Part shown: positions 5,586-32,288 of the stretch, in pieces
Layout of the letters: the number at the start of each line of letters is the position of its first letter
Numbering within the stretch: position 1 is the first letter of the stretch
Assembly (NCBI GenBank): GCA_025999275.1
Contig: AP024680.1
Location: 1,957 to 65,956 of the forward strand
Length of the DNA: 64,000 bases
From: Patescibacteria group bacterium
GTDB lineage: Bacteria; Patescibacteriota; Microgenomatia; UBA8517
Direction of reading: 5' to 3'
Position numbers and translations under genes: made by a program
Notes under the pieces: generated by a model
The model's database searches: none
The model's input: the letters and a program-made list of their open reading frames with translations, nothing else
What the model was told of the DNA's origin: nothing

Positions 5586-5589
5586 TAAC

Positions 5590-13270: not shown

Positions 13271-13357
13271 TTCCCATTTTCTCTTTCGCTTTACCCGCCA
13301 AAATTAATTTGACGAAAGCGATAAGGACAAAATTCTCTTTACTTTTTAAAGTACCTG

Positions 13358-13431
13358 TGGACCTGAGCGGCTTCGAACCGCTGACCTCTACATTGCAAAT
13401 GTAGCGCTCTGGCCAACTGAGCTACAGGCCC
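13358..13431 (-). tRNA. tRNA-Ala (anticodon TGC)
   Basis: Folded by hand. Acceptor GGGCCTG/CAGGTCC. Anticodon loop tTTGCAa. TTCGAAG T-loop. Lies immediately 5' of the 23S, as in canonical rRNA operons. Confidence 0.85.
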
Positions 13432-13659
13432 AAGTCAAAGATTTTTAAAAAGTGCTAACAAATAAAAAACCGACTCTCTTTGAGCCGGTAACCTACATAC
13501 TTAGGAAAACTCTATAATTTAAAAGCCAACAAATAGGCTTAAAATCTTTAGTAATTCTTAAGTTTATTTTCCATTAAACAATACAAAAAATTTCGGCTCA
13601 AAGGCAACAAACATTATAAATGTAAAGTCAAATTTAGTCAATAGTTTAATTATGAACTA

Positions 13660-14020
13660 TGAATAATGGGGTATGGGAAATAGAATATCTAAATTCCAAG
13701 CACTAAATTCTAGACAAAAATAATAACTCAAAAGTCAAAAGGCAAAATTCCTGCCTACCGGCAGGACAGCCTACCGTCAGGCAGGCAGGCAAAATTACCA
13801 GCCCTAGGCTGGTTGGCCTTGGGCCAACAATTCAAAATTAAAAATTATTTAATTATCTAACAAAACTTTTGAATTTTAACTTTGAATTATTTTATTCTTA
13901 ATTCTTAAATCGTAAATCTTAATTCTTTTTTACCATTACTACTTACTGCTTTCTACTTACTACTATCTTTCCAGTTCTGACCAACCCCGCCGTAGGCGGG
14001 GACCAACTTCGACTATCAGC
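13660..14020. repeat. R-family repeat (inverted copy of 6080-6500) between tRNA-Ala and tRNA-Ile
   Basis: Reverse complement matches copy 1 block by block (gggccaacaattcaaaattaaaaattatttaattat; cctgcctaccggcagg; caaaagtcaaaag; ccccgccgtaggcggggaccaacttcgac at 13985-14010). Confidence 0.7.
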
Positions 14021-15618: not shown

Positions 15619-15648
15619 AATTCCTAAAACTCAAATGGCCGCCCCGGT

Positions 15649-15722
15649 GCGACCAACCAAGAGAAACCTTGATTGTTCCGAGACGGCCATTAGAAAAGGC
15701 TTCTCTGTCTGGTTGGTCGCAT
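15649..15722. promoter_or_regulatory. 12-bp inverted repeat (gcgaccaaccaa...ttggttggtcgc) in the recombinase upstream region
   Basis: Seen directly in the sequence. Location fits an operator or 5'-UTR structure for the recombinase gene. Confidence 0.3.
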
Positions 15723-15853
15723 TTTCAGTATATCACAAAATCAAAATTAGCAAAAATTCTTTTTATTGAGCAAAGCAAATATTATGCTCGCCTAAAAGGC
15801 GAGCTAAAGGTAGGATTAAAAAAATCGCAAGAGATACGAACCTTATTTTGGCT

Positions 15854-15940
15854 GCGCGCGCAACGCCGCAAAATCAATGGGCGGCGCTGTGCGCCGCCCA
15901 CAAAATGGCTCTTTCAAAGCCTAAAAGTCAGTTTCTGGTG
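15854..15940. repeat. inverted repeat A, right copy (87 bp perfect), abutting repeat B
   Basis: Exact reverse complement of 14134-14220. With indels, weaker similarity continues back to ~15790. Confidence 0.9.
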
Positions 15941-15982
15941 CAATTATACCGTTCCGCTCGAAACTATTTTATCAAAAATTTC
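15936..15982. repeat. inverted repeat B, left copy (47 bp, shares TGGTG/CACCA with repeat A); duplicates the first 16 codons of the gene at 18618..19409
   Basis: tggtgcaattataccgttccgctcgaaactattttatcaaaaatttc matches the reverse complement of 19362-19408 with 1 mismatch. It encodes VQLYRSARNYFIKNF followed immediately by TAA. Confidence 0.85.
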
Positions 15983-16002
15983 TAAAAATTGTTAGCTCCG
16001 GC

Positions 16003-16270
16003 AGTGGCGGCAGGAAAAGGGGTTAAAGGGGAAAATCCTGCCTGTTTGCCTGTCGGCAGGCAGGGAATTGCCGCCACTGCCTCCGCTTTACTGCTCGTCG
16101 TCCCGCCTTACGGCGGGACTCCTCGCAATTTCAAGCCTCATTATTGCTCGGCCGCCTAACGGCGGCCTCGCGCTAATCGCTACTACAGTCGCACCCCCGC
16201 CTTTGCTTGGGGTCGCGCTCCTTTCGCTCGCCCCACCTCTGGCGGGGCTCGCTATCTGCTAGAGAAATTT
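16003..16270. repeat. GC-rich multi-hairpin block (R-family-like palindromes) in an AT-rich genome
   Basis: Palindromes ggcagtggcggca...tgccgccactgcc; cctgcctg...ggcagg; cccgccttacggcggg; ggccgcctaacggcggcc; ccccacctctggcgggg. All are visible as inverted repeats. Confidence 0.5.
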
Positions 16271-16371
16271 TCGCTCATTTCGTATCTAAATAACAATACA
16301 AGTCCTGGCTTGAAGTATTAAAACTATCAAATTTCTCCCGTAGGTTGTAAAATATATTCCACATCCAAACT

Positions 16372-17283
16372 ATGAAAGAAATAAATATAGTTTATTCTGA
16401 AAATTATCTTAAATATGACCTAGGCCTCGACAACCCTATTTCTAAAACCAAAACAGGAATGTTTCTGGAGAAACTTAGAAAAGAAGGAAAAATAGATTAC
16501 AAGGTTTTGGAAGCTCCAAGAGCCGAGGAAGAAGACCTGCTTTTAGTTCATACACCAAGATATCTACAAGAGTTAAGAAGGTTGGCGGACAATAATTTGG
16601 ATTTTGATGCCGATACTCCAGTAAATCATGGGATGTTAGAAGGGGGGTTATATATCATCGGCGGAACCATTCTATCCTTAAACCTTGCTTTGCAAGACGA
16701 AAGAGTTGTAAATCTAATCGGAGGCATGCATCATGCAAGTTCTTACAAAGCTTCCGGTTTTTGTATTTATAATGACCACGCCATAGCTATTCGAAAACTC
16801 CAAAAAGAGGGCAAAATAAAGAAGGCAATTGTTTACGATCTTGATGTGCATGCAGGTCAGGGAACACAAGAAATTTTCTATCATGATGCAAGTGTTATGA
16901 CAGTGTCTATCCATCAAGACCCACGGACAATTTATCCGGGGACTGGTTTTGAATGGCAAAAGGGAGAAGGAGAGGGATTAGGAACAAATATTAATATTCC
17001 ATTGCCTCCTGGTACTATGGAAAGAGAGTATTTGCAAGCATTAGACTCTATATTAGAAAGTACAAAAAGTTTCAGTCACGACATTTCAATCTTAATTTTA
17101 GGAGTTGATACTTATAAAGAGGACTTTCTGGGTGGAATGAGATTAGAAAAGGAAAGTTTTAGAAAGATTGGCGAGAGATTTAGAAATTTCCAGAAATTAG
17201 CAATTCTTTTTGGTGGTGGTTATTCTAGTAAAATTCCAGATCTTTGGATGTTATTCCTAAAAGGTTACTTAGGAATAAATTAA
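16372..17283 (+). CDS. histone-deacetylase-family (AcuC/acetylpolyamine amidohydrolase-like) protein with atypical metal-site motif
   Basis: GGMHHASSY and DLDVHAGQGT (canonical D-x-D-x-H-H-G-D-G; here His->Ala and Asp->Gln). 303 aa. Confidence 0.7.
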   Translation: MKEINIVYSENYLKYDLGLDNPISKTKTGMFLEKLRKEGKIDYKVLEAPRAEEEDLLLVHTPRYLQELRRLADNNLDFDADTPVNHGMLEGGLYIIGGTILSLNLALQDERVVNLIGGMHHASSYKASGFCIYNDHAIAIRKLQKEGKIKKAIVYDLDVHAGQGTQEIFYHDASVMTVSIHQDPRTIYPGTGFEWQKGEGEGLGTNINIPLPPGTMEREYLQALDSILESTKSFSHDISILILGVDTYKEDFLGGMRLEKESFRKIGERFRNFQKLAILFGGGYSSKIPDLWMLFLKGYLGIN

Positions 17284-17883
17284 TCAAAGACTATTTAAAA
17301 ACTCAATTACCTTGTCCTCATAAATCGGTTGTTTTGTTTCTGGGTTTCTGTAACTATGATCCGCATTTGATATTTGGTGGTAAGTTATACTTTGTGATAT
17401 AGCGCCATCCATATCTTTTTTTACCACCTCAATACTTCCAAACTTATCTTTTTCTCCTTGGATAATAGTGATTTTTCCAGTGAATTCATTTAGTTTGACT
17501 TCTCCAGTTACATATCCAAGAACAATTACTTCATATAGTTTTTTTTCTTCATCGGTCAAACTGTTTAGATAATAGCTAGCTATAATTCCACCAAGAGATT
17601 TGCCAATAAGTCGAATATGACTAAATTTATCAAAACCAGCAATCGATAACATTTTCCTAAGTACCTCCAATTCTTCTTTCAACTCTGGACCAGAAGAATG
17701 GTCATCCCCCCTTTCTAAGAAGGGAAAATTGAACATAATCACACTATTGCCTTTACCCTTAGAACTTTCAAACAATTTTTGCATAAAAGGAGAATTTATA
17801 CCCCCGGATCCGCCATGCAAAATTACATCTAGTGTAGTAGCTTTGCTATTATGGAAATGTAAAAAACTGGTCAATTTATTCAT
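17284..17883 (-). CDS. alpha/beta-hydrolase-fold esterase (dienelactone-hydrolase-like)
   Basis: HGGSGG oxyanion-type motif, nucleophile elbow GKSLGG, C-terminal NADHS (His). Confidence 0.55.
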   Translation of the reverse strand: MNKLTSFLHFHNSKATTLDVILHGGSGGINSPFMQKLFESSKGKGNSVIMFNFPFLERGDDHSSGPELKEELEVLRKMLSIAGFDKFSHIRLIGKSLGGIIASYYLNSLTDEEKKLYEVIVLGYVTGEVKLNEFTGKITIIQGEKDKFGSIEVVKKDMDGAISQSITYHQISNADHSYRNPETKQPIYEDKVIEFLNSL

Positions 17884-18509
17884 TTCGGATTTTTCAATTG
17901 GGGTAAATTTTCGACAATTCTACCAATAACCATATCTGGTGTTAAACTAGTAGTATCTATTACTACCGAGTGGAAACATTTCCTCGAAAGATCAATCAAA
18001 CAAGCTTCCATTGCTAAAAATTTTTCGGGCTTGTCTCGTACAAATAAATCTTCCGCTGAAATTTGATCTGGTTGATTTCTCGCACGCATTTCAAGCCTTT
18101 TCAGCCTTTCTTCAATGCTGGCAGTAAAGACAAAAGAAGCATCAAATTTGGGGTGATACGGTAACATATCTATCAAAACTTCTTTTATTCTCGGTGTCCC
18201 TCTTACAGTATGAAAGGCTAAAGATCTCAAAATAATTGTCGAGTCTTGAATAGTGTATCTCTCAGGCCAAACAAAACTTCTGATATCTGCCATAAGGGCG
18301 GCTACATATAAATTTCCTAGAACTTCGGCATCATACGCATCCGCCCTCCGTAAACTATCTGCCAAAAGATAAATTGGGTTATCGTGAACAATAGAATTTC
18401 GTCTTATTTCCCATTCTCTACCAGTATGTTCAATAAAATTCTTGGTGGCTGTTGTCTTTCCAGCTAAATCCATGCCTTCAAAATGTATATATAATGCTCT
18501 TTCTTTCAT
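17880..18509 (-). CDS. P-loop nucleoside/nucleotide kinase (thymidylate-kinase/dNK-like)
   Basis: Walker A GMDLAGKTT near the N-terminus, 209 aa. 4-nt overlap with the upstream hydrolase gene. Confidence 0.55.
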   Translation of the reverse strand: MKERALYIHFEGMDLAGKTTATKNFIEHTGREWEIRRNSIVHDNPIYLLADSLRRADAYDAEVLGNLYVAALMADIRSFVWPERYTIQDSTIILRSLAFHTVRGTPRIKEVLIDMLPYHPKFDASFVFTASIEERLKRLEMRARNQPDQISAEDLFVRDKPEKFLAMEACLIDLSRKCFHSVVIDTTSLTPDMVIGRIVENLPQLKNPK

Positions 18510-18617
18510 ATTTACATCAATACATATAAAACTGAAACAGCATGTGATTTTAACATCCTATGCAGTGTTTTTTTAGATTCATTGGTACTTGTTTCTTGAT
18601 ATTCCAAAAAATATTTC

Positions 18618-19409
18618 TCAACAGCCCTTGGTTGATAAAATAAATCTCCTGGCACCTCCTGCCCCCCCAGTACCCTTACAACCTCCATTGCAGATAATAA
18701 CTGCTTTAAGAGGAACCCCTCTTTTAATTGCTTCTGGAATTACGTTCTTGCCTGAATGAAGATATGCCCCATCCCCAGTAACTGAGATAACATTTTTCGC
18801 ACCTGCCAAAATTCCACCTACCCCTACGCCCAAAGCGGAGCCAAAGCATAAACACGCATCAATTGTGTCAAGGGTATCTTGCGTGTATTCACCTAAATCT
18901 CCTACTACAAATGAGGGTTTCGTTCTTTTAATCGCCGAAAAGAGCTTTTTGTAATTATTTGAAATAATATAGCCACTGGATTTATCGGGAATTTTACCAA
19001 AACAAGCCTCAATTCTCTCGTTTGAAGATAGCGCCACAATTTTCTGCTTAGCAAATCCGTCACCTTGTTCTAAAACTACTACTCTGCGTGACCGATTAAT
19101 TACATTTCTAAGATTGTCGGGAATTGGATAAGTAAAAATTTGCAATTTTCTAAACCCTTTATTCAAATACCTTTTCTCTTCTTCAAGATTACAGCCAAAA
19201 GACAAAAGTAACTTTTTAACCCCATCAAGCTTTGTTAGTTCCTTTTTATACAGCTTATTTATGAAACTTCTTATTTTTTTATTTTTATTGGAAAGAGACT
19301 TTCTCTGAGTTGCTGAATTAATTGGGTGAACAACAAAGCGTGTATGATCTTTAACTATTGGGAAATTTTTGATAAAATAGTCTCGAGCGGAACGGTATAA
19401 TTGCACCAA
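18618..19409 (-). CDS. thiamine-diphosphate-binding protein resembling 2-oxoacid:ferredoxin oxidoreductase beta subunit (orphan, divergent)
   Basis: VGDLGEY...GSALGVGVGGILAGAKNVISVTGDGAY...AVIICNGGCKGTGGAGG fits the OFOR-beta GDG-x27-N(N/G) TPP pattern. The N-terminal ~110 aa are unrelated to it. Its start codon lies inside inverted repeat B'. Confidence 0.45.
   Translation of the reverse strand: MVQLYRSARDYFIKNFPIVKDHTRFVVHPINSATQRKSLSNKNKKIRSFINKLYKKELTKLDGVKKLLLSFGCNLEEEKRYLNKGFRKLQIFTYPIPDNLRNVINRSRRVVVLEQGDGFAKQKIVALSSNERIEACFGKIPDKSSGYIISNNYKKLFSAIKRTKPSFVVGDLGEYTQDTLDTIDACLCFGSALGVGVGGILAGAKNVISVTGDGAYLHSGKNVIPEAIKRGVPLKAVIICNGGCKGTGGAGGARRFILSTKGC
19362..19408. repeat. inverted repeat B, right copy (core CACCA at 19404-19408)
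   Basis: gaaatttttgataaaatagtctcgagcggaacggtataattgcacca. Confidence 0.85.
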
Positions 19410-19424
19410 CTAAAGTTTAACTCA

Positions 19425-19880
19425 ATGAAAGATTGTGTTTTCTGCAAAATAGCAAAAGGAGAAATACCATCAGCAAAAATCTAGGAAGACAAAAATTTCC
19501 TCGCAATCCTTGATATTATGCCAAACACCAAAGGAATGGCTCTTGTTATCAGTAAAAAACACTACGACTCCTATGCTTTCGATATGCCAGAAAATATGTT
19601 TAAGAAATTAATGGTAGCTTCAAAAAAAGTGGCAAAGATTCTTGAAAAAGGACTAAATGTTAAAAGAGTTGCAATGGTAATGGAAGGAATGGGAATCAAT
19701 CATGTACACATTAAACTTTATCCACTACATGGAATAAACAAAAAATTCCAAGAAATGTGGGCAAAAGACAAAGTTTGGTTTGATAAATATGAAGGCTATA
19801 TAAGCACCCAAACAGGAGAAAAAGTAGAAATAAAAGAGCTAGAAAAATTAGCAAGAAGAATTAGAACCAAAAATTCATAA
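19425..19880 (+). pseudogene. HIT-family hydrolase gene interrupted by an in-frame TAG at codon 20 (19482-19484)
   Basis: My translation from ATG 19425: MKDCVFCKIAKGEIPSAKI*EDKNFLAILDIMPNTKG..., continuing into track ORF 19518..19880 (...GINHVHIKLYPLHG). HIT proteins have Tyr/Val at the stop position (CIFCKIxxGEIPxxxVYEDD). It is 16 bp from, and divergent to, the gene starting at 19409. Confidence 0.6.
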
Positions 19881-19921
19881 CTTCTAAAAATAAATTCACT
19901 CTTTAATGTATAATAAAAAGT

Positions 19922-22114
19922 ATGACAGAACTTGTTACTCTTAACTTTAGAATTCCAAGAAATACTGATGTCACACCTGAGGCGGCACAAACTTTCCTTT
20001 CTGCCCTAACGCAGATAAACGCTGTTTCTTTCTGGGAAAAATTAACAGGAGTAGTGCCCCAACCTCTTGCTCTTGAAATTGCTCTCATAAACCAACAAAT
20101 TAGATTTCAAATTACCTGCGACTCTGGCATTGCCCCATTTATTGAAACCCAGCTTCAATCAAACTATCCACTTGTGATTATAGAAAGAGTTGCCGATCCA
20201 CTAACTCGATCAGACCTTTATAAAATCAATCTTCAAAACCTAACAACCACCTCTTTACAACTTAGAAAAGGAAGTTACTACCCAATTGCAACTTTTGATT
20301 CTTTCTCAGAAATTGACCCCCTCTCTTCAATCCTTTCTGTGCTTTCAAAAAGCGATCCGGATGAGTTTGCGTTAATTCAAATTGCACTTGAAGCAACAGA
20401 CTCCTCATGGCAACAAAAAGGAGCATCTTTTGCAGAAAAAGGAACAAAAAATGATGATGGTAGTTATTCCCCAAGATCGGATAAAAATATAATAAATGAA
20501 AAAATCTCTTATACAGGATTTAGGACGTCTATAAGAATTGTTGCAAACCAAACAAAAACCGTAAAAGAATTGGTTAGTGCATTCGGAGTTTTTTCAAGAG
20601 CAGATGGAAATTCTTTCAAAATTAAAAAGAACGGGCTATTTGGATTAAAGAAAGATTCTATTAAAGATGTCATATTAAGAAAAGTAACAGATAACCAGAT
20701 ACTAAACATCAAAGAGCTGGCAACCATTTGGCACTTACCTTCTGAAAAAATAAAAACAACCGGAATTAGCTGGGGCGTCTCAGTCTTATATGAGCCACCC
20801 GACAACCTGCCAATAGCAGTAGATGATGAAAATATCAAAAAGGAAACAAATTTCTTCGCCAAAACATTATTCAAAAACAGAGAGGTTATATTTGGAATCA
20901 AAAACAAAGATAGAATGCGCCATATGTGGGCTGTTGGTAAAACCGGCACAGGTAAATCAACTATGATGGCCAATATGATAATTGATGATTTCAAAAAAGA
21001 TCGAGGTGTTGCCTACATTGATCCGCATGGTGACACCTGTGAGATATTGCTTGATTATATTCCAAGCCACAGAATAAATGATGTCATTTATTTTAATCCT
21101 GCCGACCGTGATTATCCCATTACCCTTAATCCACTTGAGGTTAAAAATAACGAAGAAGCAGAACTAGTAGTTTCAGGTTTAATGAGCATCTTTACCAAAG
21201 TCTGGGCAAATGTTTGGTCTGCAAGAATGGAATACATATTAAGAAATTCGTTTATGACTCTTGCCACCTACCCCAATTCCACTCTTGAGGATGTATTAAA
21301 AATATTGGTCGACAAAAATTTCCGCGATCAAGTCTTGCAAAAAACTACCGATTCGGCTTTGATTCATTTTTGGAGGCAAGAATACGAAAAAATGCCCGAT
21401 CGTCTTCAAAAGGAAGCAATTGCCCCTATTCAAAATAAAGTTGGTCAATTTGTAACCTCACCAATGATAAGACGCATAATCGGTAAATCAAGAAGTACCA
21501 TTTCTCTTGATAAAATAATCAACGAGGAAAAAATTCTACTTGCAAACTTATCTCAAGGAAGACTGGGTGAAGACAATGCAAATCTCTTGGGAGCAATGCT
21601 TATCACCCAAATTCAACTTGCCGCAATGAGGAGAGTTGATATTAAAGCTGAAGAAAGAAAACCCTATTATGTATTTGTTGACGAGTTTCAGAATTTTGCC
21701 ACAGATTCATTTATAAAAATCCTGTCTGAAATTAGAAAATATAACCTTTCCTTAACTCTAGCCAACCAATATATGGCTCAAATCCCCGAAAATGTAAGAA
21801 AAGCAATCTTGGGAAATGCCGGAACAATAATCACATTTTCAGCAGGTGCTGAAGACGCCGCTACCTTAAGCAAAGAATTTGCTGAAGTCTTTTCAGAAAG
21901 CGACCTGGTAAATTTGGCTAATTTCCAGATTGCCATAAAACTAATGATTGATGGACATTCATCAAGGCCTTTCCTTGCCCACACGCTTCCCCTTCCCTTA
22001 TCCAAGAACCAGAACAGACAAAAAGTGATTGAGGTATCAAGGCAAAGGTGGTCAGATAAAAGCAATATCAATCAGCCACCAAATCAAAATTGGAAACAAA
22101 TCAAATTTAGGTAA
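19922..22114 (+). CDS. FtsK/HerA-superfamily ATPase of the T4SS coupling-protein (TrwB/TraD/VirD4) / VirB4 type, with ~300-aa conserved N-terminal domain
   Basis: RMRHMWAVGKTGTGKST (Walker A), YIDPHGD, FNPAD...NPLE, FVDEFQNF (Walker B), RKYNLSLTLANQ, LGNAGTIITF. Paralog of 58510..60843. No N-terminal TM. Confidence 0.65.
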   Translation: MTELVTLNFRIPRNTDVTPEAAQTFLSALTQINAVSFWEKLTGVVPQPLALEIALINQQIRFQITCDSGIAPFIETQLQSNYPLVIIERVADPLTRSDLYKINLQNLTTTSLQLRKGSYYPIATFDSFSEIDPLSSILSVLSKSDPDEFALIQIALEATDSSWQQKGASFAEKGTKNDDGSYSPRSDKNIINEKISYTGFRTSIRIVANQTKTVKELVSAFGVFSRADGNSFKIKKNGLFGLKKDSIKDVILRKVTDNQILNIKELATIWHLPSEKIKTTGISWGVSVLYEPPDNLPIAVDDENIKKETNFFAKTLFKNREVIFGIKNKDRMRHMWAVGKTGTGKSTMMANMIIDDFKKDRGVAYIDPHGDTCEILLDYIPSHRINDVIYFNPADRDYPITLNPLEVKNNEEAELVVSGLMSIFTKVWANVWSARMEYILRNSFMTLATYPNSTLEDVLKILVDKNFRDQVLQKTTDSALIHFWRQEYEKMPDRLQKEAIAPIQNKVGQFVTSPMIRRIIGKSRSTISLDKIINEEKILLANLSQGRLGEDNANLLGAMLITQIQLAAMRRVDIKAEERKPYYVFVDEFQNFATDSFIKILSEIRKYNLSLTLANQYMAQIPENVRKAILGNAGTIITFSAGAEDAATLSKEFAEVFSESDLVNLANFQIAIKLMIDGHSSRPFLAHTLPLPLSKNQNRQKVIEVSRQRWSDKSNINQPPNQNWKQIKFR

Positions 22115-22164
22115 AAGCTACCTAAAATTTGAAAAAGCTCTTTTAAAACCAAAAGGAGGATAAA

Positions 22165-22284
22165 ATGGACTATATTCTACTTGTAGTTGTTCTTTCAATT
22201 TTCCTATGGTTAGTTTTTGTTGTTGCGAATTGGTCAATTACGGTTTCTTTCTACAGAAAATTAATCAATTTGTTCAAAAAATAA
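22165..22284 (+). CDS. 39-aa hydrophobic peptide downstream of the ATPase (not in ORF track)
   Basis: aaggagga RBS 5 nt upstream of the ATG. MDYILLVVVLSIFLWLVFVVANWSITVSFYRKLINLFKK. Followed by a terminator. Confidence 0.4.
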   Translation: MDYILLVVVLSIFLWLVFVVANWSITVSFYRKLINLFKK

Positions 22285-22293
22285 TAATATATT

Positions 22294-22345
22294 TCAAAAG
22301 CCATCCTTTATTTAGGTAAATTTACCTAGCAGAGGATGGCTTTTT
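22294..22345 (+). terminator. rho-independent terminator (second hairpin aacccgc...gcgggtt at 22364-22388)
   Basis: Stem gccatcct/aggatggc followed by tttttt. Confidence 0.6.
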
Positions 22346-23085
22346 TACTTTATAAAAACAAAAACCCGCCTATAAAAGCGGGTTAGACAAAAACTTCAAC
22401 ATCCAAATTATGACCGGGAGAGGTGCCCCGTTTTTTAAACAGTAAAACGGCGACATTAAAACTGGGGTGTGAAACACACTCCTTAGAAAGGAGGTGATCC
22501 ATCCGCCCCTTCCAGGACGGATACCTTGTTACGACTTAATCCTCATCGCTGGTTTCACCTTCTCCCGCCACAGGCGAGATTCGGGTGCCCCCAACTTTGC
22601 TGACTTGACGGGCGGTGTGTACAAGACCTGAGAACGTATTCACCGGAGCTTGGCTGATCTCCGATTACTACCAATTCCGCGTTCATGAGGGCGGGTTTCA
22701 GCCCTCAATCCCCACTGAGAAGCCGTTTGATGAGATTAGCTCCGCGTTACCGCTTGGCAACCCATTGTTAGGCTCCATTGTAGCATGTGTGTCGCCCCGG
22801 ACATAAGGGCCATGCTGACTTGACGTCGTCCCCACTTCCTCCCCGCATGTGCGGGGTTGTCTCCTGTGACCATCTAACACAGGACAGGGGTTGCGCTCGT
22901 TACCCCACTGAAGGGAACACCCCACGGCACGAGCTGACGACAGCCATGCAACACCTGTCTCGCCTTCCTTAATTACTTAAGGATTGTCTCTTATTTCTAA
23001 GAAACTATACGGCGGGATGTCAAACCCGGGTAAGGTTCTTCGGTTCGTCTCGAATTAAACCACATGCTCCACTGGTTGTGCAGGT

Positions 23086-23135
<50 letters not shown>

Positions 23136-23888
23136 CTCGCTTAACGCGTTAGCTTACACCCCGTACCAAAAGGCACAGGGCTAGCGAGCATAAGTTTACG
23201 GCTAGGACTACAGGGGTCTCTAATCCCTTTCGCTCCCCTAGCTTTCGTGTCTCAGCGTCAAGAAACCCCCAGCTACCTGTCTTCACCCTTGGCGTTCCTT
23301 ATCATATCAACGGATTTCACCCCTACATGATAAGTTCCAGTAGCCCCTAAGTTCTTCAATTCTGGCAGTATTGAATCCACTCCTGAGGTTGAGCCCCAGT
23401 CTTTAAGATTCAACTTACCAGAACGCCTACACACTCTTTACGCCCAATAAATCCGGGCAACGCTCGCACCCTACGTCTTACCGCAGCTGCTGGCACGTAG
23501 TTAGCGGGTGCTTATTCGCCAAGGCTTATCAACCTTGGCAAAAGTGGTTTACAACCCTAAGGCCTTCATCCCACACGCGGCGTCGCGGCGTCAGACTTTC
23601 GTCCATTGCGCACGATTCCCAGTTGCTGCCACCCGTAGGTGTATGGGCCGTGTCTCAGTCCCATTCTGGGGGGTCAGACTCTCATCTCCCCTAACCGTCA
23701 TAGCCTTGGTGGGCCATTACCCCACCAACTAGCTGATGGTCCGCAAGCTCCTCCACAAGCGAGCAGTTAAGCCCTTTGGTGCATAGCACCACATGCGGTA
23801 TTAGCCCCGCTTTCGCGGGGGTATTCCCCACTTGTGGGTAGATTCTTACGTGTTACTCAGCCGTTCGCGACTGTCCGTAGGACAGAAC

Positions 23889-24380
23889 ATTTAACAATTA
23901 ACACATAACATTTAACAATTAGCTGTTAACATTTAACTTTTAACAATTGGTTTAGAGAGTTAGGAAAGAAGTTTCTTAGAAAGGCCACCAAGCTGTTTTT
24001 GCTATAATCAAAGCTTTATCTACCAATGTTAGATATTTCTCTTTAGACAATAATTCAAGCGATAAAGCAAGATCAAGACAAGAAACAACTTCACTAATAG
24101 AACCTAGGGCATTCTGAATATATCTCCTAAAATCCTTATCAGTACCCTTTGCAGAACCTTCTGCTATATCAAGACAAACAGAAATTGAGGCTCTTACTAA
24201 TTGATCTGCCAAACTCTTATCCTTCATACGCCAACCTCTTGCGAGAAGATATATATCACGATTGAATGCTTTAGATTCTTGGTAAACCTTAAATTTTAGA
24301 AATCTAAAGACTTCCATTATCTTATTTTAACTTTAATAGTTAACAGTTAAAAGCGTAAAACGTGTGTTAATTTGTTAATT
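23889..24380 (-). other. intervening sequence in 16S helix 6 carrying an ORF; flanks form a long imperfect inverted-repeat stem
   Basis: Exon sequence ...GCATGCAAGTGGGACGGTCCGTAGGACCGAGC | insert | GTTCTGTCCTACGGACAGTCGCGAACGGCTGAGTAACACGT. Insert ends ttaacaaattaacaca.../...ctgttaacatttaac are mutually complementary. Boundaries are approximate (±10 nt). Confidence 0.6.
23976..24317 (-). CDS. four-helix-bundle protein (23S rRNA intervening-sequence protein family, PF05635/TIGR02436-like) encoded inside the 16S IVS
   Basis: 113 aa. ...SISVCLDIAEGSAKGTDKDFRRYIQNALGSISEV... matches the family NIAEG-F/Y core. Confidence 0.75.
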   Translation of the reverse strand: MEVFRFLKFKVYQESKAFNRDIYLLARGWRMKDKSLADQLVRASISVCLDIAEGSAKGTDKDFRRYIQNALGSISEVVSCLDLALSLELLSKEKYLTLVDKALIIAKTAWWPF

Positions 24381-24605
24381 GCTCGGTCCTACGGACCGTC
24401 CCACTTGCATGCTTAAGGCACGCCGCTAGCGTTCGCCCTGGGCCAGGATCAAACCCTCAAAAAGCGACGGAGGTATGTTTGCTTTGACTTGCAACATACT
24501 CGTCATCCACACAAGCAAAGCTTGTGTCCTGCATATACAGGTCTCCCAGTCATAATTTGAACGTTGAAATATTCAATTTTCAAAGTGCAAAAGCTTTGAA
24601 AACCT

Positions 24606-24636
24606 AAAAAACCCACCAGACGGTGGGTTTCTTAAG
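24606..24636 (-). terminator. hairpin + U-tract (minus strand) between RRM gene and 16S
   Basis: Plus-strand aaaaaacccaccagacggtgggtttctt; read on the minus strand this is stem cccacc/ggtggg followed by tttttt. Confidence 0.45.
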
Positions 24637-24705
24637 ATTTGCCCGAAGGCAAAATCGTCTGGTTATCAACAGCTTTTCATCTCTAAAGCCACAACAAAGT
24701 GGCAA

Positions 24706-24738
24706 GAAATATTCTATCACAGAAGAGATTTAAGTCAA
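24706..24738 (-). promoter_or_regulatory. candidate sigma70-type promoter for 16S (TTGACT-16-TAGAAT on minus strand)
   Basis: Reverse complement ttgacttaaatctcttctgtgatagaat. About 240 nt upstream of the 16S 5' end. Confidence 0.3.
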
Positions 24739-24754
24739 TATCTTAAAACCTAAA

Positions 24755-25018
24755 TTATCTCTCCTTTGGAGGTCTGGCCACATTGACAACCAAGTTTCTA
24801 CCTCCCATATCTTTTCCATTCATTTTTTCAACCGCTGAACTGGCAGCCTCCTCTGTCGCAAAGGTAACAAAACCAAAACCTTTTGATCGGCCGGAGTATT
24901 TATCACTAATTACTACAGCATCAATTACTTCACCAAACTCGCTAAAAACTTTTCTTAACTCATCAGCATTAACAGAGTAAGGCAAATTGCCTACATACAG
25001 CTTCTTTTTATCTTCCAA
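24755..25018 (-). CDS. RRM-domain RNA-binding protein
   Basis: RNP-2 LYVGNL and RNP-1 KGFGFVTF. 87 aa. Confidence 0.8.
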   Translation of the reverse strand: MEDKKKLYVGNLPYSVNADELRKVFSEFGEVIDAVVISDKYSGRSKGFGFVTFATEEAASSAVEKMNGKDMGGRNLVVNVARPPKER

Positions 25019-25154
25019 AATTTCTCACCCCCTCAAAATATCTTTCAGTGAGAATACTTTTGGAGGAATCTGCCTTACAAAAGGAGAACCGCCAAGAAGT
25101 AATTCTTCTTCAAGACAAAATCATTATACACAAAAGCAAATGCTTTGTATAGTA

Positions 25155-25802
25155 TCAGTTTTTTTTGCTATTTCTTTTTGACTTTATGTACTCAAAAACA
25201 ATAGGCAAAACAGAAATTAGAATTATTGCCAAAACCACTAAAGAAAAATGTTCCCTAACTTGAGGAATATTGCCAAACCAATAACCTGCCAGAGTAAAAA
25301 CAAAAGTCCACACAAAACCACCAAAAATATTGTAGCTTATAAATTTTCCATAATGCATCTTGCCCACTCCTGCTACAAAAGGAGCAAAAGTGCGAACAAT
25401 GGGAACAAATCTTGCTAAGAAAATTGTCTTACCTCCATGTTTTTTATAAAATTCCTGAGTTTTGTCTATATGTTCCTGATTAATAAAAGGAATTTTTGGA
25501 TTATCAACTATTTTCTGCCCAAAAAAATGCCCTATCCAATAATTGACAGTATCCCCCAAAACAGCAGCGGCAAAGAGAATCAAAAGAAGCCAAGTTAAAT
25601 GAAGCGAACCCAAAGCAGCAAAAGCACCGGCTGCAAAAAGAAGCGAATCTCCAGGCAAAAATGGGGTAAAAACAAAACCAGTTTCAGCAAAAATAATAAA
25701 AAAAAGAATTAGATGAGTTAATGTCCCATATTGGGAAATAATTTCACCCAAATGGGTATCAATATGCAGAATAAACTCAAAGATTCCTGTCAAAAACGAC
25801 AT
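25155..25802 (-). CDS. DedA-family membrane protein
   Basis: GDSLLF and RFVPIVRTFAPFVAGV signature. 215 aa. Confidence 0.8.
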   Translation of the reverse strand: MSFLTGIFEFILHIDTHLGEIISQYGTLTHLILFFIIFAETGFVFTPFLPGDSLLFAAGAFAALGSLHLTWLLLILFAAAVLGDTVNYWIGHFFGQKIVDNPKIPFINQEHIDKTQEFYKKHGGKTIFLARFVPIVRTFAPFVAGVGKMHYGKFISYNIFGGFVWTFVFTLAGYWFGNIPQVREHFSLVVLAIILISVLPIVFEYIKSKRNSKKN

Positions 25803-25911
25803 ACAGATTTAATTTGTATCTTTTTTAGAGGTAAATTGCAAGAGGAAAAATTTCCTAACCTCCTAACTCCAGGAGTTAATTAGCTTCCAACAATGGGTAT
25901 TTCTACCTAAC

Positions 25912-27402
25912 TCATTCGTAAACCAACCTACCCTCAACTTCCCGCGAAGTATTTTGATTATTTTTAAACCACTCCTCCAGCACCTGTTGTGCAGAAGTGG
26001 AGACAACTTTAGAATCGCCACTTACCATAAGTTCATCTTGGCTAATATTTAAATATTCCCGGCAATTATTAAAATGATAACCCTGCATACACAATGTATA
26101 AAATTTAGTCTTGTCAACAGGGGCACCATCAATCATTAAAGATTCTAGTTTATGAAGCTTATCAGAATAAACTGCACGAACTTTTGAATTCACCTGATAA
26201 CACTCTCCTTCCCCATCCCTGTTCTCGGTTCTCATAATGTACTCAAAGATCCTCCAGAGATCTGCGCCACTCACCTTAAACCGCCTTAAGACATCATCAT
26301 AAGGAAAACAAGCAAGAAAATCTCTCAGGTTGACAGCAGGCCCCAGTTCTTTTACCCTAATTGAGCCGCTTCCAACCAGCATAACATCAGATTCACTGCT
26401 TTGGGCAAAAGCATCAGCGATCAAATTGCCAAGAGAAGTTTCTACTTCACGCTTGGGATGAGTTAATTTTTTGGCAAGTTTAGTTAAAATGACATTATAC
26501 TTTCTGTCAACCTCACTCTTGAAAGAATAAATGTATTCCTCAAGCTTCTTGTCTGGTTTGGCAATTTTGTTGTTTATGGGAATTAACTGCCACCTATAAT
26601 CAACAATACTGTTGGTATCATCATCAACAACAATATCAAATCTGCCAATTTGATCCGTGCCAACTCCGGCCTGGGCAATAAGAATATTATTAACTTTTGT
26701 CGGTTTATCCAAAATTGTATGAGAATGGCCACCAATTATTATATCCACTCCCCACTCCGGCTTTAGAAGCTTGGCAAGCTTAATATCAGACTCATAACCA
26801 ATATGAGTCAAAAGAATTGTCAAATCTATATCATCATTTTTATAGGCATTGCAGATTTTACCAACTTCACGGCTAGCCTCCTCCACCCCCACAAAAGTGC
26901 CAATAAGTCTATCCTGCTTTATTGAATCCATAATTTTCTCGGTAATAATTCCTGTAAAGAGAATATCAAAGCCAGCTTTCTTGATAATGATATAGGGAGT
27001 CAAGATACGCCGGTTATTTTTGGTGATATAAAGATTGGCATTAACTAAAGGAAAATTCGCCATCTTTTCCAAAAAAAGAAGGTGTGGCAAACCATAATCA
27101 ACTTCATGGTTACCTATTGCAACAACATCAGGGGCAAGATAGTTCATAATCTCAATTGTGGAGCAACCTTTCCATTCAGAATCAATTAAAGATCCTTGAA
27201 GCATGTCGCCTGAGATAACATACAAGACATTTTCCTCCTCTTTCCTAACCTTATTAATATAACCTGAAAGAAGCGAAAGGCCACCAATTAGTGTCTTTTT
27301 CTTATTTCTAATCTTAGTTCTTGAAGTCTCACTTTTAACCTCAGCCAAGAAATCTCCATGCATATCATTTGAATGCAGGATTACAAATTTCTTGGTGTTC
27401 AT
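25912..27402 (-). CDS. bifunctional metallophosphatase/5'-nucleotidase family protein
   Basis: ILHSNDMHGDF, GNHEVDYG, GGHSH calcineurin-like motifs plus 5'-nucleotidase C-terminal region. 496 aa. Confidence 0.75.
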   Translation of the reverse strand: MNTKKFVILHSNDMHGDFLAEVKSETSRTKIRNKKKTLIGGLSLLSGYINKVRKEEENVLYVISGDMLQGSLIDSEWKGCSTIEIMNYLAPDVVAIGNHEVDYGLPHLLFLEKMANFPLVNANLYITKNNRRILTPYIIIKKAGFDILFTGIITEKIMDSIKQDRLIGTFVGVEEASREVGKICNAYKNDDIDLTILLTHIGYESDIKLAKLLKPEWGVDIIIGGHSHTILDKPTKVNNILIAQAGVGTDQIGRFDIVVDDDTNSIVDYRWQLIPINNKIAKPDKKLEEYIYSFKSEVDRKYNVILTKLAKKLTHPKREVETSLGNLIADAFAQSSESDVMLVGSGSIRVKELGPAVNLRDFLACFPYDDVLRRFKVSGADLWRIFEYIMRTENRDGEGECYQVNSKVRAVYSDKLHKLESLMIDGAPVDKTKFYTLCMQGYHFNNCREYLNISQDELMVSGDSKVVSTSAQQVLEEWFKNNQNTSREVEGRLVYE

Positions 27403-27515
27403 TAATAATATTATAGCAAGAAGGTACTAATTCCGAGATTTAAACCAATTCAAATAATAAGCTGGTAAAAGAAATAAGTTGTCTCTCTTTTCTGGCAGAA
27501 CAACACACTAAAAAC

Positions 27516-28445
27516 CTATGGTTGAAATATCCACTCAGGCAAAAAACGAACTTCGCGAACTTCTGGGAATTGCTTTGCCGTTGCTTCAATCTGCAACCAC
27601 AAAATTCTTACTCTACAAGCCCCACCGACAGTTTTGTTTTGAGAATCGTTAAATTCAAGGGTCAAAATTCCGTTTCTTAAAGACGCACTTTTTAACGAAA
27701 ATCCATCCAAAGGATATTCTGTGGTAATACCCCGATTAATTTCTTCTTGAGTCAAATTCTCCTTGCCTTTAAGCAAAAGTTTAACGGTTTCTTGAATCGG
27801 CGTCTTGGAAACAGAAATTTCCCTTTCGACCGGCACTATTCCATCCTGAGAACATTTTACGCTACCGTTTGCGTCTTTATCTTTTTCCGGCTGGTAGTAA
27901 TACAATTTGACATTTCTAGTTTGAGGGGAAAATTGAGAGAAGAAAATAGGCATACGAAGCTCGTCTGCGTATTCTGGCAAACCAGAAGGATTACTCTTTT
28001 CCAAAACCAAAAAACCCCTTTGAGTAACTGGAACTGGAAAATCAATTCGCGCCTCAAAAGGCACAAATTCTTTTGTCGTCCAATCATCTAGCGCCAAAGC
28101 ATGAGTTTGAGCCAAAATCTTGCCGTTTTCGTCCAAAAGTTTCATCGGAAAGACTGATTCAAAAAACCAAAAACCCCGTGCTTTTCCTTTAACAATCAGG
28201 GGATTAGAAACTAAATCATTGGCACGAGGAGATTCAACTTGAATCAAATCTTCCTTGGGGCAAGCCTCAAATTCGCATTTTGGTCCAACCCGGCTAACAT
28301 ATGTGCCATCTGAACAAAGCTTAGCACCCTCCGTACAGGCAACCGGTTTATCACCAACAATAAATTTCAACACCAACCGACTTAAGCCCCACCAAGATAC
28401 TACCAAACCAACCAAAATTATTAAAGTAATAAAAAACTTTTTCAT
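27516..28445 (-). CDS. membrane-anchored secreted protein with C-terminal GerMN-like domain
   Basis: N-terminal TM/signal. C-terminal ...GILTLEFNDSQ...ATAKQFPEVREVRF resembles GerMN. Confidence 0.4.
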   Translation of the reverse strand: MKKFFITLIILVGLVVSWWGLSRLVLKFIVGDKPVACTEGAKLCSDGTYVSRVGPKCEFEACPKEDLIQVESPRANDLVSNPLIVKGKARGFWFFESVFPMKLLDENGKILAQTHALALDDWTTKEFVPFEARIDFPVPVTQRGFLVLEKSNPSGLPEYADELRMPIFFSQFSPQTRNVKLYYYQPEKDKDANGSVKCSQDGIVPVEREISVSKTPIQETVKLLLKGKENLTQEEINRGITTEYPLDGFSLKSASLRNGILTLEFNDSQNKTVGGACRVRILWLQIEATAKQFPEVREVRFLPEWIFQP

Positions 28446-28614
28446 TTTTTGTTTGAGATAATTATCCGATTTTTTATCCAGTGTTTGGAGCTTCTTGTAT
28501 TTCGAAGTATGCCAGTTTGAATGATGCAGTGCATTTTAAATTCTTTTCATCTGGGCAATTATTTATTCTTTTTTATGCTGACAAAAATCAGGCAGAATTT
28601 CAGGTTGTCCTAAA

Positions 28615-28688
28615 TGGCTGCGGGGCAGGGATTCGAACCCCGATTAACGGATCCAAAGTCCGCTGTCCTACCCTTAGACGACCCCGCA
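28615..28688 (-). tRNA. tRNA-Gln (anticodon TTG)
   Basis: Acceptor TGCGGGG/CCCCGCA. Anticodon loop cTTTGGa. TTCGAAT T-loop. 3' GCCA. Confidence 0.7.
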
Positions 28689-28989: not shown

Positions 28990-29324
28990 TTTTCAAATTT
29001 AAATCCTAATATCTAAATCCTTGCCTGCCAGCAGATCAAGATACCGCCATGCAGACAGGCAAAACTAAAAATTAAAATTTATTTGATATATAGAAAAAAA
29101 TTACTTTTAACTTTTACATCTTGCCTTTTATCTTTGTTGTGCCAGGTGTCAACCTATTTTGGAGGAAGGTGCCAACCTGAGACACCCTAAGGGTGGCAAG
29201 CTAAACAAAAATACCAGCCCCAGTCTGGTAATTTTGACTTTTGAATTTTAACTTTTGAATTATTTTATTCTTAAATCTTAAATCGTAAATCTTAATTCTT
29301 TTACCCCCCTTACTACTATTTTTG
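28990..29324. repeat. R-family repeat copy adjacent to tRNA-Glu
   Basis: ttttgacttttgaattttaacttttgaattattttattcttaaatcttaaatcgtaaatcttaattctttt...tactac is near-identical to 13861-13950. Also ggtgtcaacct...gacaccc as in 55440-55500. Confidence 0.65.
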
Positions 29325-29982: not shown

Positions 29983-32288
29983 ATTTTTACAATTTTAAGC
30001 CTCAAAGAATTGCCAACGACAGATATTGAAGATAAAGCCATCGCCAAAGCCGCCAACATTGGATTAAGAAAAATCCCAAAAAATGGATATAAGGCCCCCA
30101 TTGCAACGGGAATAAGAAGGGTATTATAACCAAACGCCCAAAACAAATTCTGTTTTATAACAGATATGGTTGCTCGGCTTAATTTAAAAGAAGTTAAAAC
30201 AACCCTTATATCACGGTTTAGCAAAGTAATTCCAGCTGTCTCAATGGCCACATCACTACCTGTACCAATAGCAATACCAACATCAGCTGCAGCCAAAGCA
30301 GGAGCATCGTTGATTCCATCACCAACAAAAGCCACCACTCCATTTTCTTTTCTCTTCAAATCAGCAACTTTTAAAGCCTTTTGATCCGGCAAAACCTCAG
30401 CAAGAACATTTTCTATGCCAGCTTCTCTTGCAACCGATCTAGCAACTCTCATATTATCTCCAGTTATTAACCAAGCCTTAATTCCCATTTTTTTAAGCCT
30501 TTCCACAACTTCTTTAACAGCCGGCTTTAGTGTGTCAGCAATTGCAATAAGCCCTAAAAGTTCTTTATCATCAGAAAGAAAAACAACCGTCTTTCCATCC
30601 TCTTCCAGCTCCTTTATTGTCTTTTCCACATCTTTATCTATATTAATCACCGCTTTTTCCATTAATTTTCTGTTCCCCAAAATATACTTCTTACCATCTA
30701 TCCATCCTTCAATACCATATCCAGGAAATGATTTGAAATCCTTAACCTTCTTTAAGGGAAGATTTTTTTCCTTTGCTTTGGCCAAAATGGCCTCACCAAG
30801 TGCATGCTCTGATCCTTGTTCCAAAGATGCTGCAATATAAAGCAAATTTTGACTTTCGATTTCTGACTTTTGACTTTTAACTTTTGGTTTTTGAATTACA
30901 ATCACATCCTTCACCTGTGGCTTGCCTTTGGTTAATGTTCCCGTCTTGTCAAAAATAACAATCCTTGTTTTATGAGCGATCTCCAGACTTTCCGCATCTT
31001 TAACAAGAATTCCTTCTTCTGCCCCTCTACCAACTCCGACCATAATTGCAGTAGGAGTTGCCAACCCCATCGCGCAAGGGCAAGCAATAATTAAAACTGC
31101 AATCATATTTGTCAGCGCGTAAGAAAAATTTCCGAAGTCATACCAAACAACAAAAGTCAAAACAGCAAGCACCAAAACAATGGGGACAAAATAAGAAGAA
31201 ACAACATCAGCAAGCCTCTGAATTGGAGCCTTAGAACTTTGAGCTTCAGCCACCATTCTGACAATGTTTGAAAGCATAGTATCCTGCCCCACCCTCGTCG
31301 CCCGAAAAATAAAAGTTCCTGATTTATTTATAGTTCCTCCAATTACAGAATCACCAGTCTTTTTTTCAACCGGAATAGATTCCCCTGTGACCATCGACTC
31401 ATCAACACTACTTTGACCTTCAATAATTACTCCGTCTGTTGGTATCTTCTCCCCCGGTCTGACTCTAACAAGATCGCCTACCAAAACATCCTCAATTGAG
31501 ATATCAACCTCTTCGAACCTTTTATTTTCCTTAAAATCCTTATCTGTTAGCCTTTTGCCATTAACAGTTTGCAGTATACGCGCCGTTTTTGGTTGAAGCC
31601 CAATTAGTTTTTTTATGGCATCTGAAGTATGAGCCTTAGCTTTTGCTTCTAAATATCTGCCAAGAAGAATAAGGGTAATAATAACCGAGGCGGTGTCAAA
31701 ATACATATGCCCACCAAAAAACGCTGAATAAACTGAATAAAAAAAGGCAGCCGAGGTGCCAATTGAAATCAAAGTGTCCATGCTGGCAGTCCTATTTCGC
31801 AAACCAGACCAGGCAGCTTGATAAAAACTTTTACCAGCCCAAAATTGAACTGGCAATGTTAATATCAAAAGAATAAAAGGGCTAGATAAAATTTTGGGCA
31901 CAAAAGTAAACCAATCTGGAAAACTTCCTAAAAAAACAATAATAGAAAGAATAGAGGAGATCAAAACTTTTATTTTGAGTTTATTTAATTCTTTTGCCTT
32001 TTCTTCCTCTTTGATTTGATCAGCCGTCTTACCATCCAAAACATCTGAATCCTTAACAATGGCGCGGTAACCTGCTTCTTCAACCGACTTAGACAAAACT
32101 TCACTTGGTATTGAAGAATCACATTCAACAGTTGCCTGTTCGCTTGCATAATTTACAGAAGCTGATAAAACGCCTGGGGTTTTGACAAGTTTTCTCTCAA
32201 TTAATCTTGCGCAGGAAGCACAATGCATCCCAACAACAGGAAAGGAAACTTTCCTAATATTGTTAGCTTTCAAATTCATAAAAATCAT
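29979..32288 (-). CDS. copA: copper-translocating P1B-type ATPase; contains a 16-aa in-frame insert encoded by the TCAAAAG heptamer-repeat motif (30841-30900)
   Basis: N-terminal [14 protein letters not shown] ([11 protein letters not shown]), [17 protein letters not shown]. Insert [16 protein letters not shown] just before the LLxxAASLE...SEHALG region. Confidence 0.9.

Follow-up and report, generated by a model that had tools for sequence, protein, structure and literature searches.

A PF05635-encoding intervening sequence at the apex of 16S rRNA helix 6 in a Patescibacteria bacterium, with heptad-repeat arms shared by a candidate dispersed cassette

The 64,000-nucleotide stretch analyzed here, called the window below (contig AP024680.1 of assembly GCA_025999275.1, forward-strand positions 1,957 to 65,956), comes from a Patescibacteria group bacterium, a Microgenomates-type member of the Candidate Phyla Radiation (CPR)/Patescibacteria with a single 16S rRNA gene. 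That gene (window positions 22487 to 24464, minus strand, as are all parts of the gene and its insert described below) is interrupted at the apex of helix 6, between Escherichia coli positions 83 and 84, by an intervening sequence (IVS) of 492 nucleotides (nt) (23889 to 24380). The insert bears, in the rRNA sense, an open reading frame (ORF) of 113 amino acids (aa) (23976 to 24317) for a four-helix-bundle protein (PF05635/TIGR02436, S23p/Avd-like). We assign a probability of roughly 0.7 to the reading that this is a classical, non-intron, ORF-bearing rRNA IVS that is excised by RNase III without religation. The finding is a further case of a CPR 16S insertion encoding a PF05635 protein; the part worth pursuing is the architecture of the cassette.

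A cmscan of the whole window with the RF00177 model reported the 16S gene at 22487 to 23962 (model positions 1 to 1533), with the first ~70 model positions forced onto the AT-rich insert and many noncanonical pairs in the alignment. A global MAFFT alignment against E. coli likewise dragged the 5' end into the insert. Because both programs misplaced the 5' 84 nt, we instead scanned the 5' piece by itself and aligned the gene with the insert removed. The scan of 24375 to 24560 put model positions 1 to ~90 cleanly at 24381 to 24464 (E = 6e-13), so that the gene runs from 24464 down to 22487 and is interrupted; its 3' part scores 1237 bits and its 5' 84 nt score 47 bits. Freed of the insert, the 16S sequence is 1486 nt long and 69% identical to E. 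coli rrsA, and its alignment to rrsA sets the exon junction between positions 83 and 84, within the loop that caps helix 6. Read as RNA, the 5' exon (24381 to 24464) terminates at 24381 with ...GGACCGAGC (longer context, ...GCAAGUGGGACGGUCCGUAGGACCGAGC), its last 24 nt (24381 to 24404) being the 5' strand of an extended helix 6, and the 3' exon (22487 to 23888) begins at 23888 with GUUCUGUCCUACGGACAG (longer context, GUUCUGUCCUACGGACAGUCGCGAACGG), its first 22 nt (23867 to 23888) being the 3' strand. The insert, the sole one in this 16S gene, has discrete boundaries and takes the place of the loop at the tip of helix 6, the solvent-exposed "spur." A first-pass annotation, made from the letters alone, had placed an insertion of ~490 bp at 23889 to 24380; these boundaries proved exact, and the structure-aware alignments (cmscan and spliced) gave a discrete insert rather than a diffuse expansion of a variable region. 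An independent assembly, Logan contig L082 (run DRR290133), is 100% identical to the window across 23469 to 28671, so the insert is no one-off assembly error.

The exon strands on either side of the insert pair with each other. An RNA fold of 23860 to 24410 reached -152.9 kcal/mol, compared with -120.3 ± 6.1 kcal/mol for shuffled sequences (z = -5.35, with 0 of 100 shuffles as good), and in this fold the helix made by the exon strands runs on into the insert. When the two regions flanking the ORF were folded as separate strands, all 72 pairs formed between the strands, 22 of them in the exons and 50 between the arms of the insert (24320 to 24380 with 23889 to 23969). The folds show helix 6 extended to ~22 bp and, as modeled, continuous with a stem of ~40 to 50 bp, and they uphold the first-pass proposal of complementary ends forming a stem of the RNase III type.

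Covariation carries the case for the closing helix, which had likewise been proposed at the outset. In an alignment of 20 nonidentical relatives with its RNAalifold structure, the exon helix has 19 consensus pairs, all 380 of the 380 cells hold standard pairs, and 7 of the 19 pairs show compensatory, two-sided changes (for example, GC/CG in a 10:10 split, or AU/UA/GC). None of 500 shuffles reached the covariation score, and sliding the partner strand by 1 to 3 columns lowered the pairing to 31 to 43%. Each half of the helix does resemble a small local hairpin (GUCC-GUA-GGAC), but the U-A/C-G/U-G covariation at the central position points to a long-range helix and not to local hairpins.

The arms of the insert are more than AT-rich complements: they are inverted arrays of roughly 4 to 8 tandem 7-nt repeats. 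The 5' arm (24318 to 24380) is a degenerate heptad array (AAUUAAC AAAUUAAC ... UUUUAAC UGUUAAC UAUUAAA) with a side hairpin, and the 3' arm (23889 to 23969) is the inverted array, built of GUUAA units, for which Tandem Repeats Finder (TRF) gives a period of 7 and 8.6 copies (23886 to 23945). The side hairpin, CGUUUUACG, is GC rich and interrupts the heptads at 24331 to 24343; the related loci L090 and L095 have GCGCUUCGCGC and GGCGCUAAAGCGCC, respectively. Averaged over 20 helix-6 inserts, the autocorrelation was 0.52/0.57 at lag 7 and 0.47/0.50 at lag 14, compared with 0.21 to 0.33 at lags other than 7, 8, and 14, and the lag-7 periodicity was present in every arm class (UUAAC-, CCAGC-, CCAAC-, and AAUCGC-type). 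Period-7/8 arrays were detected by TRF in most arms, namely, in 28 of the 35 on the 5' side (median, 4.6 copies) and 26 of the 35 on the 3' side (median, 4.0 copies); the copy numbers, from 2 to 8.6, do not uphold a rule of "five heptads for a pentamer." Since such arrays cannot be aligned, we judged the pairing of the arms by comparing their energies with their own and with foreign or shuffled partners. At related loci, whose arms fall into four sequence classes, pairing of an arm with its own partner gave -50 to -87 kcal/mol, compared with about -30 kcal/mol for shuffled or foreign ones, and the z scores against shuffles lie at about -5 to -11 at all loci except L029 (+1.0).

Between the arms, the ORF fills nearly all of the available space, leaving ~150 nt of insert outside it and room for no second ORF. 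Its product matches PF05635 (23S_rRNA_IVP; E = 8.6e-24, 84.3 bits against a cutoff of 33.8) and TIGR02436 (four helix bundle protein; E = 1.4e-21, 76.8 bits against a cutoff of 24), so that the first-pass assignment to the four-helix-bundle family of the 23S IVSs is secure. A profile of the window ORF and 31 homologues retrieved 2GSC (Xcc0516; E = 7.7e-19) and 2RLD (BT_0352; E = 1.3e-8) from the Protein Data Bank, both entries with five chains. The AlphaFold model made from the same alignment (mean pLDDT, 94.8) has helices at residues 10 to 27, 31 to 55, 60 to 86, and 92 to 110, and Foldseek aligned it to 2GSC at TM scores of 0.87 to 0.89, to 2RLD at 0.76 to 0.82, and to Avd, the accessory protein of diversity-generating retroelements (DGRs), at ~0.77 with a probability of 1.0 (4DWL and the cryo-electron microscopy structure 8UB7). 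Xcc0516, BT_0352, and Avd have their fold and sequence family in common with the window protein, although its identity to Avd is only 6%. The family motif is GxxRxxxSxxxNxxE (PMC3936711); R42, S46, and E53 are kept here, the N is replaced by D50, and the first position is Q39 rather than G, Q39 being invariant throughout the subfamily alignment.

Relatives of this insert are numerous. Database searches gave 73 homologues, including proteins named from Candidatus Sungbacteria and Parcubacteria, and a protein-alignment scan of species-representative genomes, which did not recover the species of the window itself and whose top match had 55% identity (53% across the full length), supplied the best 80 loci, nearly all of them in Patescibacteria/CPR metagenome-assembled genomes. 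BLAST with the window's own rRNAs put the ORF of 17 of these 80 best loci within a 16S gene, from spliced positions ~62 to 82 on one side to ~85 to 236 on the other, which is the same site, and that of 2 within a 23S gene at window-23S positions 1357/1381, both in Peregrinibacteria/Peribacteria (L057 and L074). The closest protein relatives (P0003, P0004, and P0007; 66 to 73% identity) occupy the same 16S site as located by the exon anchors CATGCAAG and GCGAACGG, and one related locus also has an upstream VTT-domain gene in common with the window. Metagenome contigs were scanned with the extended 5' helix-6 strand as the query, and 28 of the 29 16S genes found in this way carry the ORF-bearing insert, with the exon anchors 463 to 566 nt apart wherever both were found. 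The 29th, L110 (Ga0209542_10250693; positions 1 to 177 of the oriented stretch), has the same helix-6 strands and, at the insert site, only an ORF-less hairpin of ~75 nt with GGAUAAGA/UCUUAUC-type repeats, which may be a reduced derivative of the insert. Altogether, 47 related 16S genes have the same ORF-bearing insert at the same site. The sporadic occurrence typical of IVSs is not what we see in the metagenomic genes, although the query was itself the extended helix and IVS-free relatives could be missed by such a scan; the insert's presence in 28 of the 29 genes with this helix-6 strand suggests long vertical inheritance.

An assembly chimera joining the 16S gene to an unrelated gene would be the most trivial explanation, as rRNA genes are common breakpoints in metagenome assemblies and contig L082 itself terminates within the 16S gene. 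That contig is nonetheless an identical, independently assembled copy, the same architecture recurs at the 47 related loci in many samples, and the flanking helix covaries across related loci, which leaves an artefact with a negligible probability.

The first-pass remark that an ORF-bearing insert of this family in a 16S gene is uncommon holds for bacteria at large but fails for the CPR, in which it is a recurrent and already published feature. Among the insertions of 380 CPR 16S genes, Table S4 of Tsurumaki et al. (2024) records 18 PF05635 ORFs, with 4 more in 23S genes; 15 of the 18 lie in insertions without a group I or II match, and the authors note that their counts confirm the earlier work of Brown et al. 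(2015) (PMC11270868). Those insertions have in common with ours the host group, the protein family, and a non-intron insertion in a single-copy 16S gene. The parts of that survey considered here give counts only and do not go into the position at helix 6, the stem and its heptad arrays, or whether the ORFs are intact (PMC11270868). The window copy also differs in being frameshifted.

Some records among the related loci have features of their own. A LAGLIDADG_1 ORF (5429 to 5851) lies in a further, downstream 16S insertion of L083, and the 16S gene of L008 has two ~0.9-kb gaps relative to that of the window (~5070 to 5932 and ~6664 to 7583). Records titled "uncultured Gammaproteobacteria" or "Pseudomonadales" (L002, L007, L010, L024, L025, and others) carry the same cassettes; L024 has such a title and a 16S sequence 77% identical to that of the window over 1412 nt, and the taxonomy of these records looks unreliable.

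Comparison within the lineage shows the IVS protein to be intact, the window copy excepted, and, as judged from substitution patterns, under purifying selection: the ratio of nonsynonymous to synonymous substitution rates (dN/dS; NG86) is 0.14 at the median and spans 0.035 to 0.29 over 52 pairs with 60 to 98% amino acid identity. This is unlike the decaying S23p of Coxiella and suggests that the enigmatic "IVS protein" is functional.

In the window itself, the ORF had been called intact in the first-pass annotation. It is indeed open over 113 aa, but its C terminus is altered by a frameshift in a run of five A residues and the motif residue N50 is lost. The protein ends in ...IAKTAWWPF, where all homologues have ...IAKQLGG(L/F)SKKLxx. 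Directly past the run (23996 to 24000, where the homologues read AAAA, IAK-QLGG), the adjacent frame reads KQLGGLSKKLLS followed by a stop and so matches the conserved C terminus; one extra A therefore shifted the frame by +1, and the ancestral ORF would have had 118 aa and ended at 23960. The out-of-frame remnant (QLGGLSKKLLS plus TAA, 23960 to 23995) is conserved in frame in the relatives, all 47 of whose IVS ORFs terminate with QLGGxSKKLxx. Against the hidden Markov model of the family, 47 of 48 helix-6 insert ORFs match from positions 1 to 3 through 117 to 119 in a single frame, and the window copy ends at 107 of ~118. Contig L082, assembled independently, has the A5 run as well. Position 50 is N in 35 of 35 relatives and D in the window copy, which also carries S at a site that is N in 32 of 35 relatives and is the most deviant of the 36 distinct sequences. 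Given the lost C terminus and the lost N50, this copy is probably decaying.

An IVS is defined by the replacement of a helix tetraloop by an extended stem-loop with complementary borders, by transcription as part of the precursor, and by excision without ligation, and such excision is by RNase III in Salmonella, Leptospira, alphaproteobacteria, and Coxiella (PMC4990558). The replaced loop and the complementary borders seen here give the insert the anatomy of a classical IVS, and by analogy with the characterized cases, RNase III excision without religation is its most likely mechanism. The insert would be transcribed as part of the pre-16S rRNA, RNase III would cut the long stem, and the ends would stay unligated, yielding a mature 16S rRNA in two pieces, an ~85-nt 5' piece and an ~1.4-kb 3' piece, held together by the remnant of helix 6 and by helices 1 to 4. 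The excised RNA could then act as the mRNA for the four-helix-bundle protein.

No Shine-Dalgarno site precedes the insert ORF, but such sites are rare in this genome (7 of 42 window ORFs have a Shine-Dalgarno-like motif), so this is no argument against translation. The 16S 3' end retains CACCUCCU despite the rarity of these motifs, and a TATAAT-like box lies within ~15 nt of many start codons, which suggests that leaderless or short-leader mRNAs are widespread.

A self-splicing group I or group II intron, its exons ligated after removal, would be the obvious alternative in this host group, given the frequency of such introns in CPR 16S genes (PMC11270868). However, cmscan of 22300 to 24700 gave no match to an intron covariance model at E ≤ 0.01, the SSU rRNA being the only hit; the insert has no homing endonuclease domain (LAGLIDADG or GIY-YIG), PF05635 being the only Pfam match; the ~150 nt beside the ORF are simple repeat arms; and the site is a helix loop, not the conserved core. 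We regard splicing as very improbable.

Several points do weigh against excision and use of the insert as an mRNA. The heptad stem has bulges and mismatches, and RNAalifold run on 20 arm constructs yielded the exon helix only and no consensus heptad stem, as repeat arrays cannot align in register. Helix 6 tolerates insertions, so that retention in the ribosome is physically possible. The 64-kb window contains no RNase III (ExxGD) signature, which says little for a genome of ~1 Mb. The argument for translation of the insert ORF comes solely from the apparent purifying selection in relatives, and the homologous Coxiella ORF appears untranslated (PMC4990558).

Taken further, these points would have the mature 16S rRNA keep the 492 nt as an elongated spur, with the ORF incidental or read from precursors only. 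The peripheral position of helix 6, the continuity of the exon helix with the insert stem, the lack of a visible RNase III gene in the window, and the degenerating window ORF would all suit retention. It is nevertheless unlikely, since the ORF is intact in 47 relatives at a dN/dS of ~0.14, which implies translation and is hard to square with burial in the ribosome, and characterized IVSs of the same design are excised. The 2015 study of Brown et al. is also said to have found CPR 16S insertions missing from rRNA transcripts.

Several 16S IVSs have been described in other bacteria, namely in Helicobacter canis, Campylobacter helveticus, Caedibacter caryophilus, Clostridium paradoxum, and Rhizobium tropici; these are non-intron insertions in variable helices, several near the 5' end, and they are short (~70 to 240 nt), some of them yielding fragmented 16S rRNA. 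To our knowledge, none of them has an ORF, and our literature searches found nothing relevant that links 16S helix 6 to IVSs. The closest match in design is the helix-45 IVS of the 23S rRNA in Coxiella burnetii and Leptospira, which, like the window insert, is ~430 to 490 nt long, replaces a loop, has complementary ends, and carries a same-sense PF05635 ORF without a good Shine-Dalgarno site (PMC4990558; Ralph and McClelland 1993, as cited there). Decay of the ORF is a further likeness, clear in Coxiella (PMC4990558) and apparent in the window copy. The two systems differ in the host molecule (16S helix 6 versus 23S helix 45), in the evolution of the ORF (under apparent purifying selection in the CPR relatives versus reductive evolution in Coxiella), and in the standing of RNase III cleavage, which has been shown for Coxiella (PMC4990558) and is inferred here.

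The same combination of gene and repeat arms is found well outside the 16S gene, and we read the helix-6 insert as one instance of a dispersed repeat-ORF-repeat cassette with further copies in 23S helix 45, in the spacers of tRNA operons, and between protein genes. Across the 80 genomic loci, 73% of 158 flanks were more periodic than 95% of random windows drawn from the same loci (Mann-Whitney p ~ 1e-63); the flanks are periodic at most loci irrespective of host, and at most loci the upstream and downstream arrays are mutually complementary. Among the 61 rRNA-free genomic loci, 15 have the ORF and its repeat arms within a same-strand tRNA cluster. In 10 of these, the ORF lies between same-strand tRNA genes, 7 of which have the order tRNA-Thr/ORF/tRNA-Tyr (L010, L016, L017, L022, L023, L025, and L032; the others are L034, L040, and L070), and in 5 it lies just upstream of tRNA-Trp (L036, L043, L044, L059, and L061). 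Where flanks were read at loci with tRNAs on both sides, the cassette occupies almost the entire spacer, its arrays starting no more than ~10 nt from the tRNA ends (e.g., at L016, L032, and L034). The remaining loci with flanks read, 11 in number, have the ORF between protein-coding genes, and these flanks resemble the ends of protein genes wherever a reading frame can be traced. A hidden structured host RNA split by the insert at the rRNA-free loci was also considered and rejected, Rfam giving tRNAs only.

The window holds further copies. A second, intact family gene (123 aa; 50085 to 50456, minus strand; PF05635, E = 3.4e-31) lies between a GT4 glycosyltransferase gene (48863 to 50059) and a 5'-3' exonuclease gene (50482 to 51387), and its 25-nt flanks are inverted arrays of three heptads each (UUGUAGC UAGUAGC AUGUAGC upstream and GCUACAA GCUACAU UCUACUU downstream). 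A third copy (4453 to 4762, minus strand) is broken into two frames (4601 to 4762 and 4453 to 4668), is preceded by AGUUGGU-type repeats at ~4763 to 4805, and comes right after a sortase-domain gene (4806 to 5585). The 23S gene contains an ORF-less heptad hairpin of ~94 nt (12564 to 12667, minus strand; AAGUCAA.../UUUGACU...) at E. coli 23S position ~540 to 550, which we take to be helix 25.

Such a distribution could be that of a cassette that is primarily mobile or selfish and inserts wherever a spacer tolerates it, with helix 6 as one site among others and rRNA processing as a by-product, an account that is compatible with RNase III excision. The recurrence of one design in 23S genes (L057 and L074), between tRNAs (10 loci), before tRNA-Trp (5 loci), and in protein-gene spacers speaks for it, as do the second window copy with its GUAGC/GCUAC heptads and the broken third one. 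In a neighbor-joining tree of the proteins, some intergenic copies fall inside the broad clade of the 16S copies, and the literature reports 18 family genes inside cas operons. On the other hand, the cassette has no transposase, nuclease, or target-site duplication, and the protein clades largely track location, the tRNA copies forming one clade and the two 23S copies another. The filling of 28 of 29 genes with this helix-6 strand, the 29th holding the ORF-less hairpin, suggests long vertical inheritance. We consider this account plausible but somewhat short of an even chance.

A more specific proposal, which we hold tentatively and with the odds leaning against it, concerns the architecture itself. 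The helix-6 IVS would be one copy of a widespread and seemingly undescribed cassette, an Avd-like four-helix-bundle gene bracketed by inverted arrays of ~4 to 5 (range, 2 to 9) repeats of 7 to 8 nt, whose period is kept even though the sequence varies by lineage. Its hosts would mostly be stable-RNA units (16S helix 6, 23S helix 45, the tRNA-Thr/tRNA-Tyr spacer, and the region upstream of tRNA-Trp), along with protein-gene spacers. The repeat stem would serve as a processing site that frees the mRNA and possibly as a binding site for a protein pentamer, in autoregulation or spread. Xcc0516 is a toroidal homopentamer (PMC4990558), and 8UB7, according to its PDB entry description, is a reverse transcriptase ribonucleoprotein that includes Avd chains; by analogy, a protein that binds its own repeat stem is an attractive idea. 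The insert has space for one ORF only. Neither a reverse transcriptase nor DGR repeats turned up within the flanks that were read (±330 nt at 11 loci), and the genes called in L082 to L088 include no reverse transcriptase, though this was not a systematic search of the loci.

Tandem 7-nt repeats are known to build hairpin stems in RNA and spacers elsewhere, namely in the cyanobacterial STRR heptanucleotide repeats and in the heptanucleotide-repeat P6b stem of the Nostoc trnL intron (see also PMC4476775). We know of no link between those repeats and a four-helix-bundle gene. The likeness to the present arms lies in the tandem 7-nt hairpin repeats and, with another phylum and other motifs, is a resemblance only. 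In the literature searched, we found no link of the PF05635 family to heptamer repeats or tRNA operons, which is no proof of novelty; the repeat-built stem and the relatives in tRNA operons seem not to have been described previously.

Inserts of this kind have practical consequences, as they break covariance-model and global alignments of the 16S gene (here for the 5' 84 nt), lengthen PCR amplicons, and probably give a two-piece 16S rRNA. With its heptad arms and its recurrence in tRNA operons, the cassette suggests a connection, open to experiment, among the protein, the RNA flanking its gene, and the processing of stable RNAs.

Repeats of the same period are scattered through the window. Period-7 tandem arrays lie at 3621 to 3666, 6218 to 6266, 13860 to 13964, 29230 to 29300, 30847 to 30901, 48859 to 48882, and 55253 to 55447. 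A composite repeat (a TTTTGAx array followed by a TCTTAAA array) recurs at 13860 to 13930 and 29230 to 29300, with its complement at 55253 to 55447, beside tRNA genes. Some of the arrays make inverted pairs; within 55253 to 55447, for example, a TCAAAAG array (55329 to 55377) faces an inverted CUUUUGA array (55396 to 55444). The 23S gene also has smaller extras, 42 nt past E. coli position 277 and 43 nt past position 1010.

The 16S and 23S genes of the window are 9.2 kb apart. The gap (13264 to 22487) has genes on both strands, among them those for a large serine recombinase (13963 to 15618) and a TraG/TrwB-like coupling protein (19922 to 22114), and looks like a mobile element or an inversion in the former spacer. 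The tRNA-Ala(UGC) gene (13357 to 13431) still precedes the 23S gene, and the tRNA-Ile(GAU) gene (14064 to 14138) has the opposite orientation. The 16S gene is immediately preceded, on its own strand, by a gene for an 87-aa RRM_1 RNA-binding protein (24755 to 25018, minus strand), and just downstream of the 5S gene is one for an S1-domain protein (8849 to 9961, minus strand).

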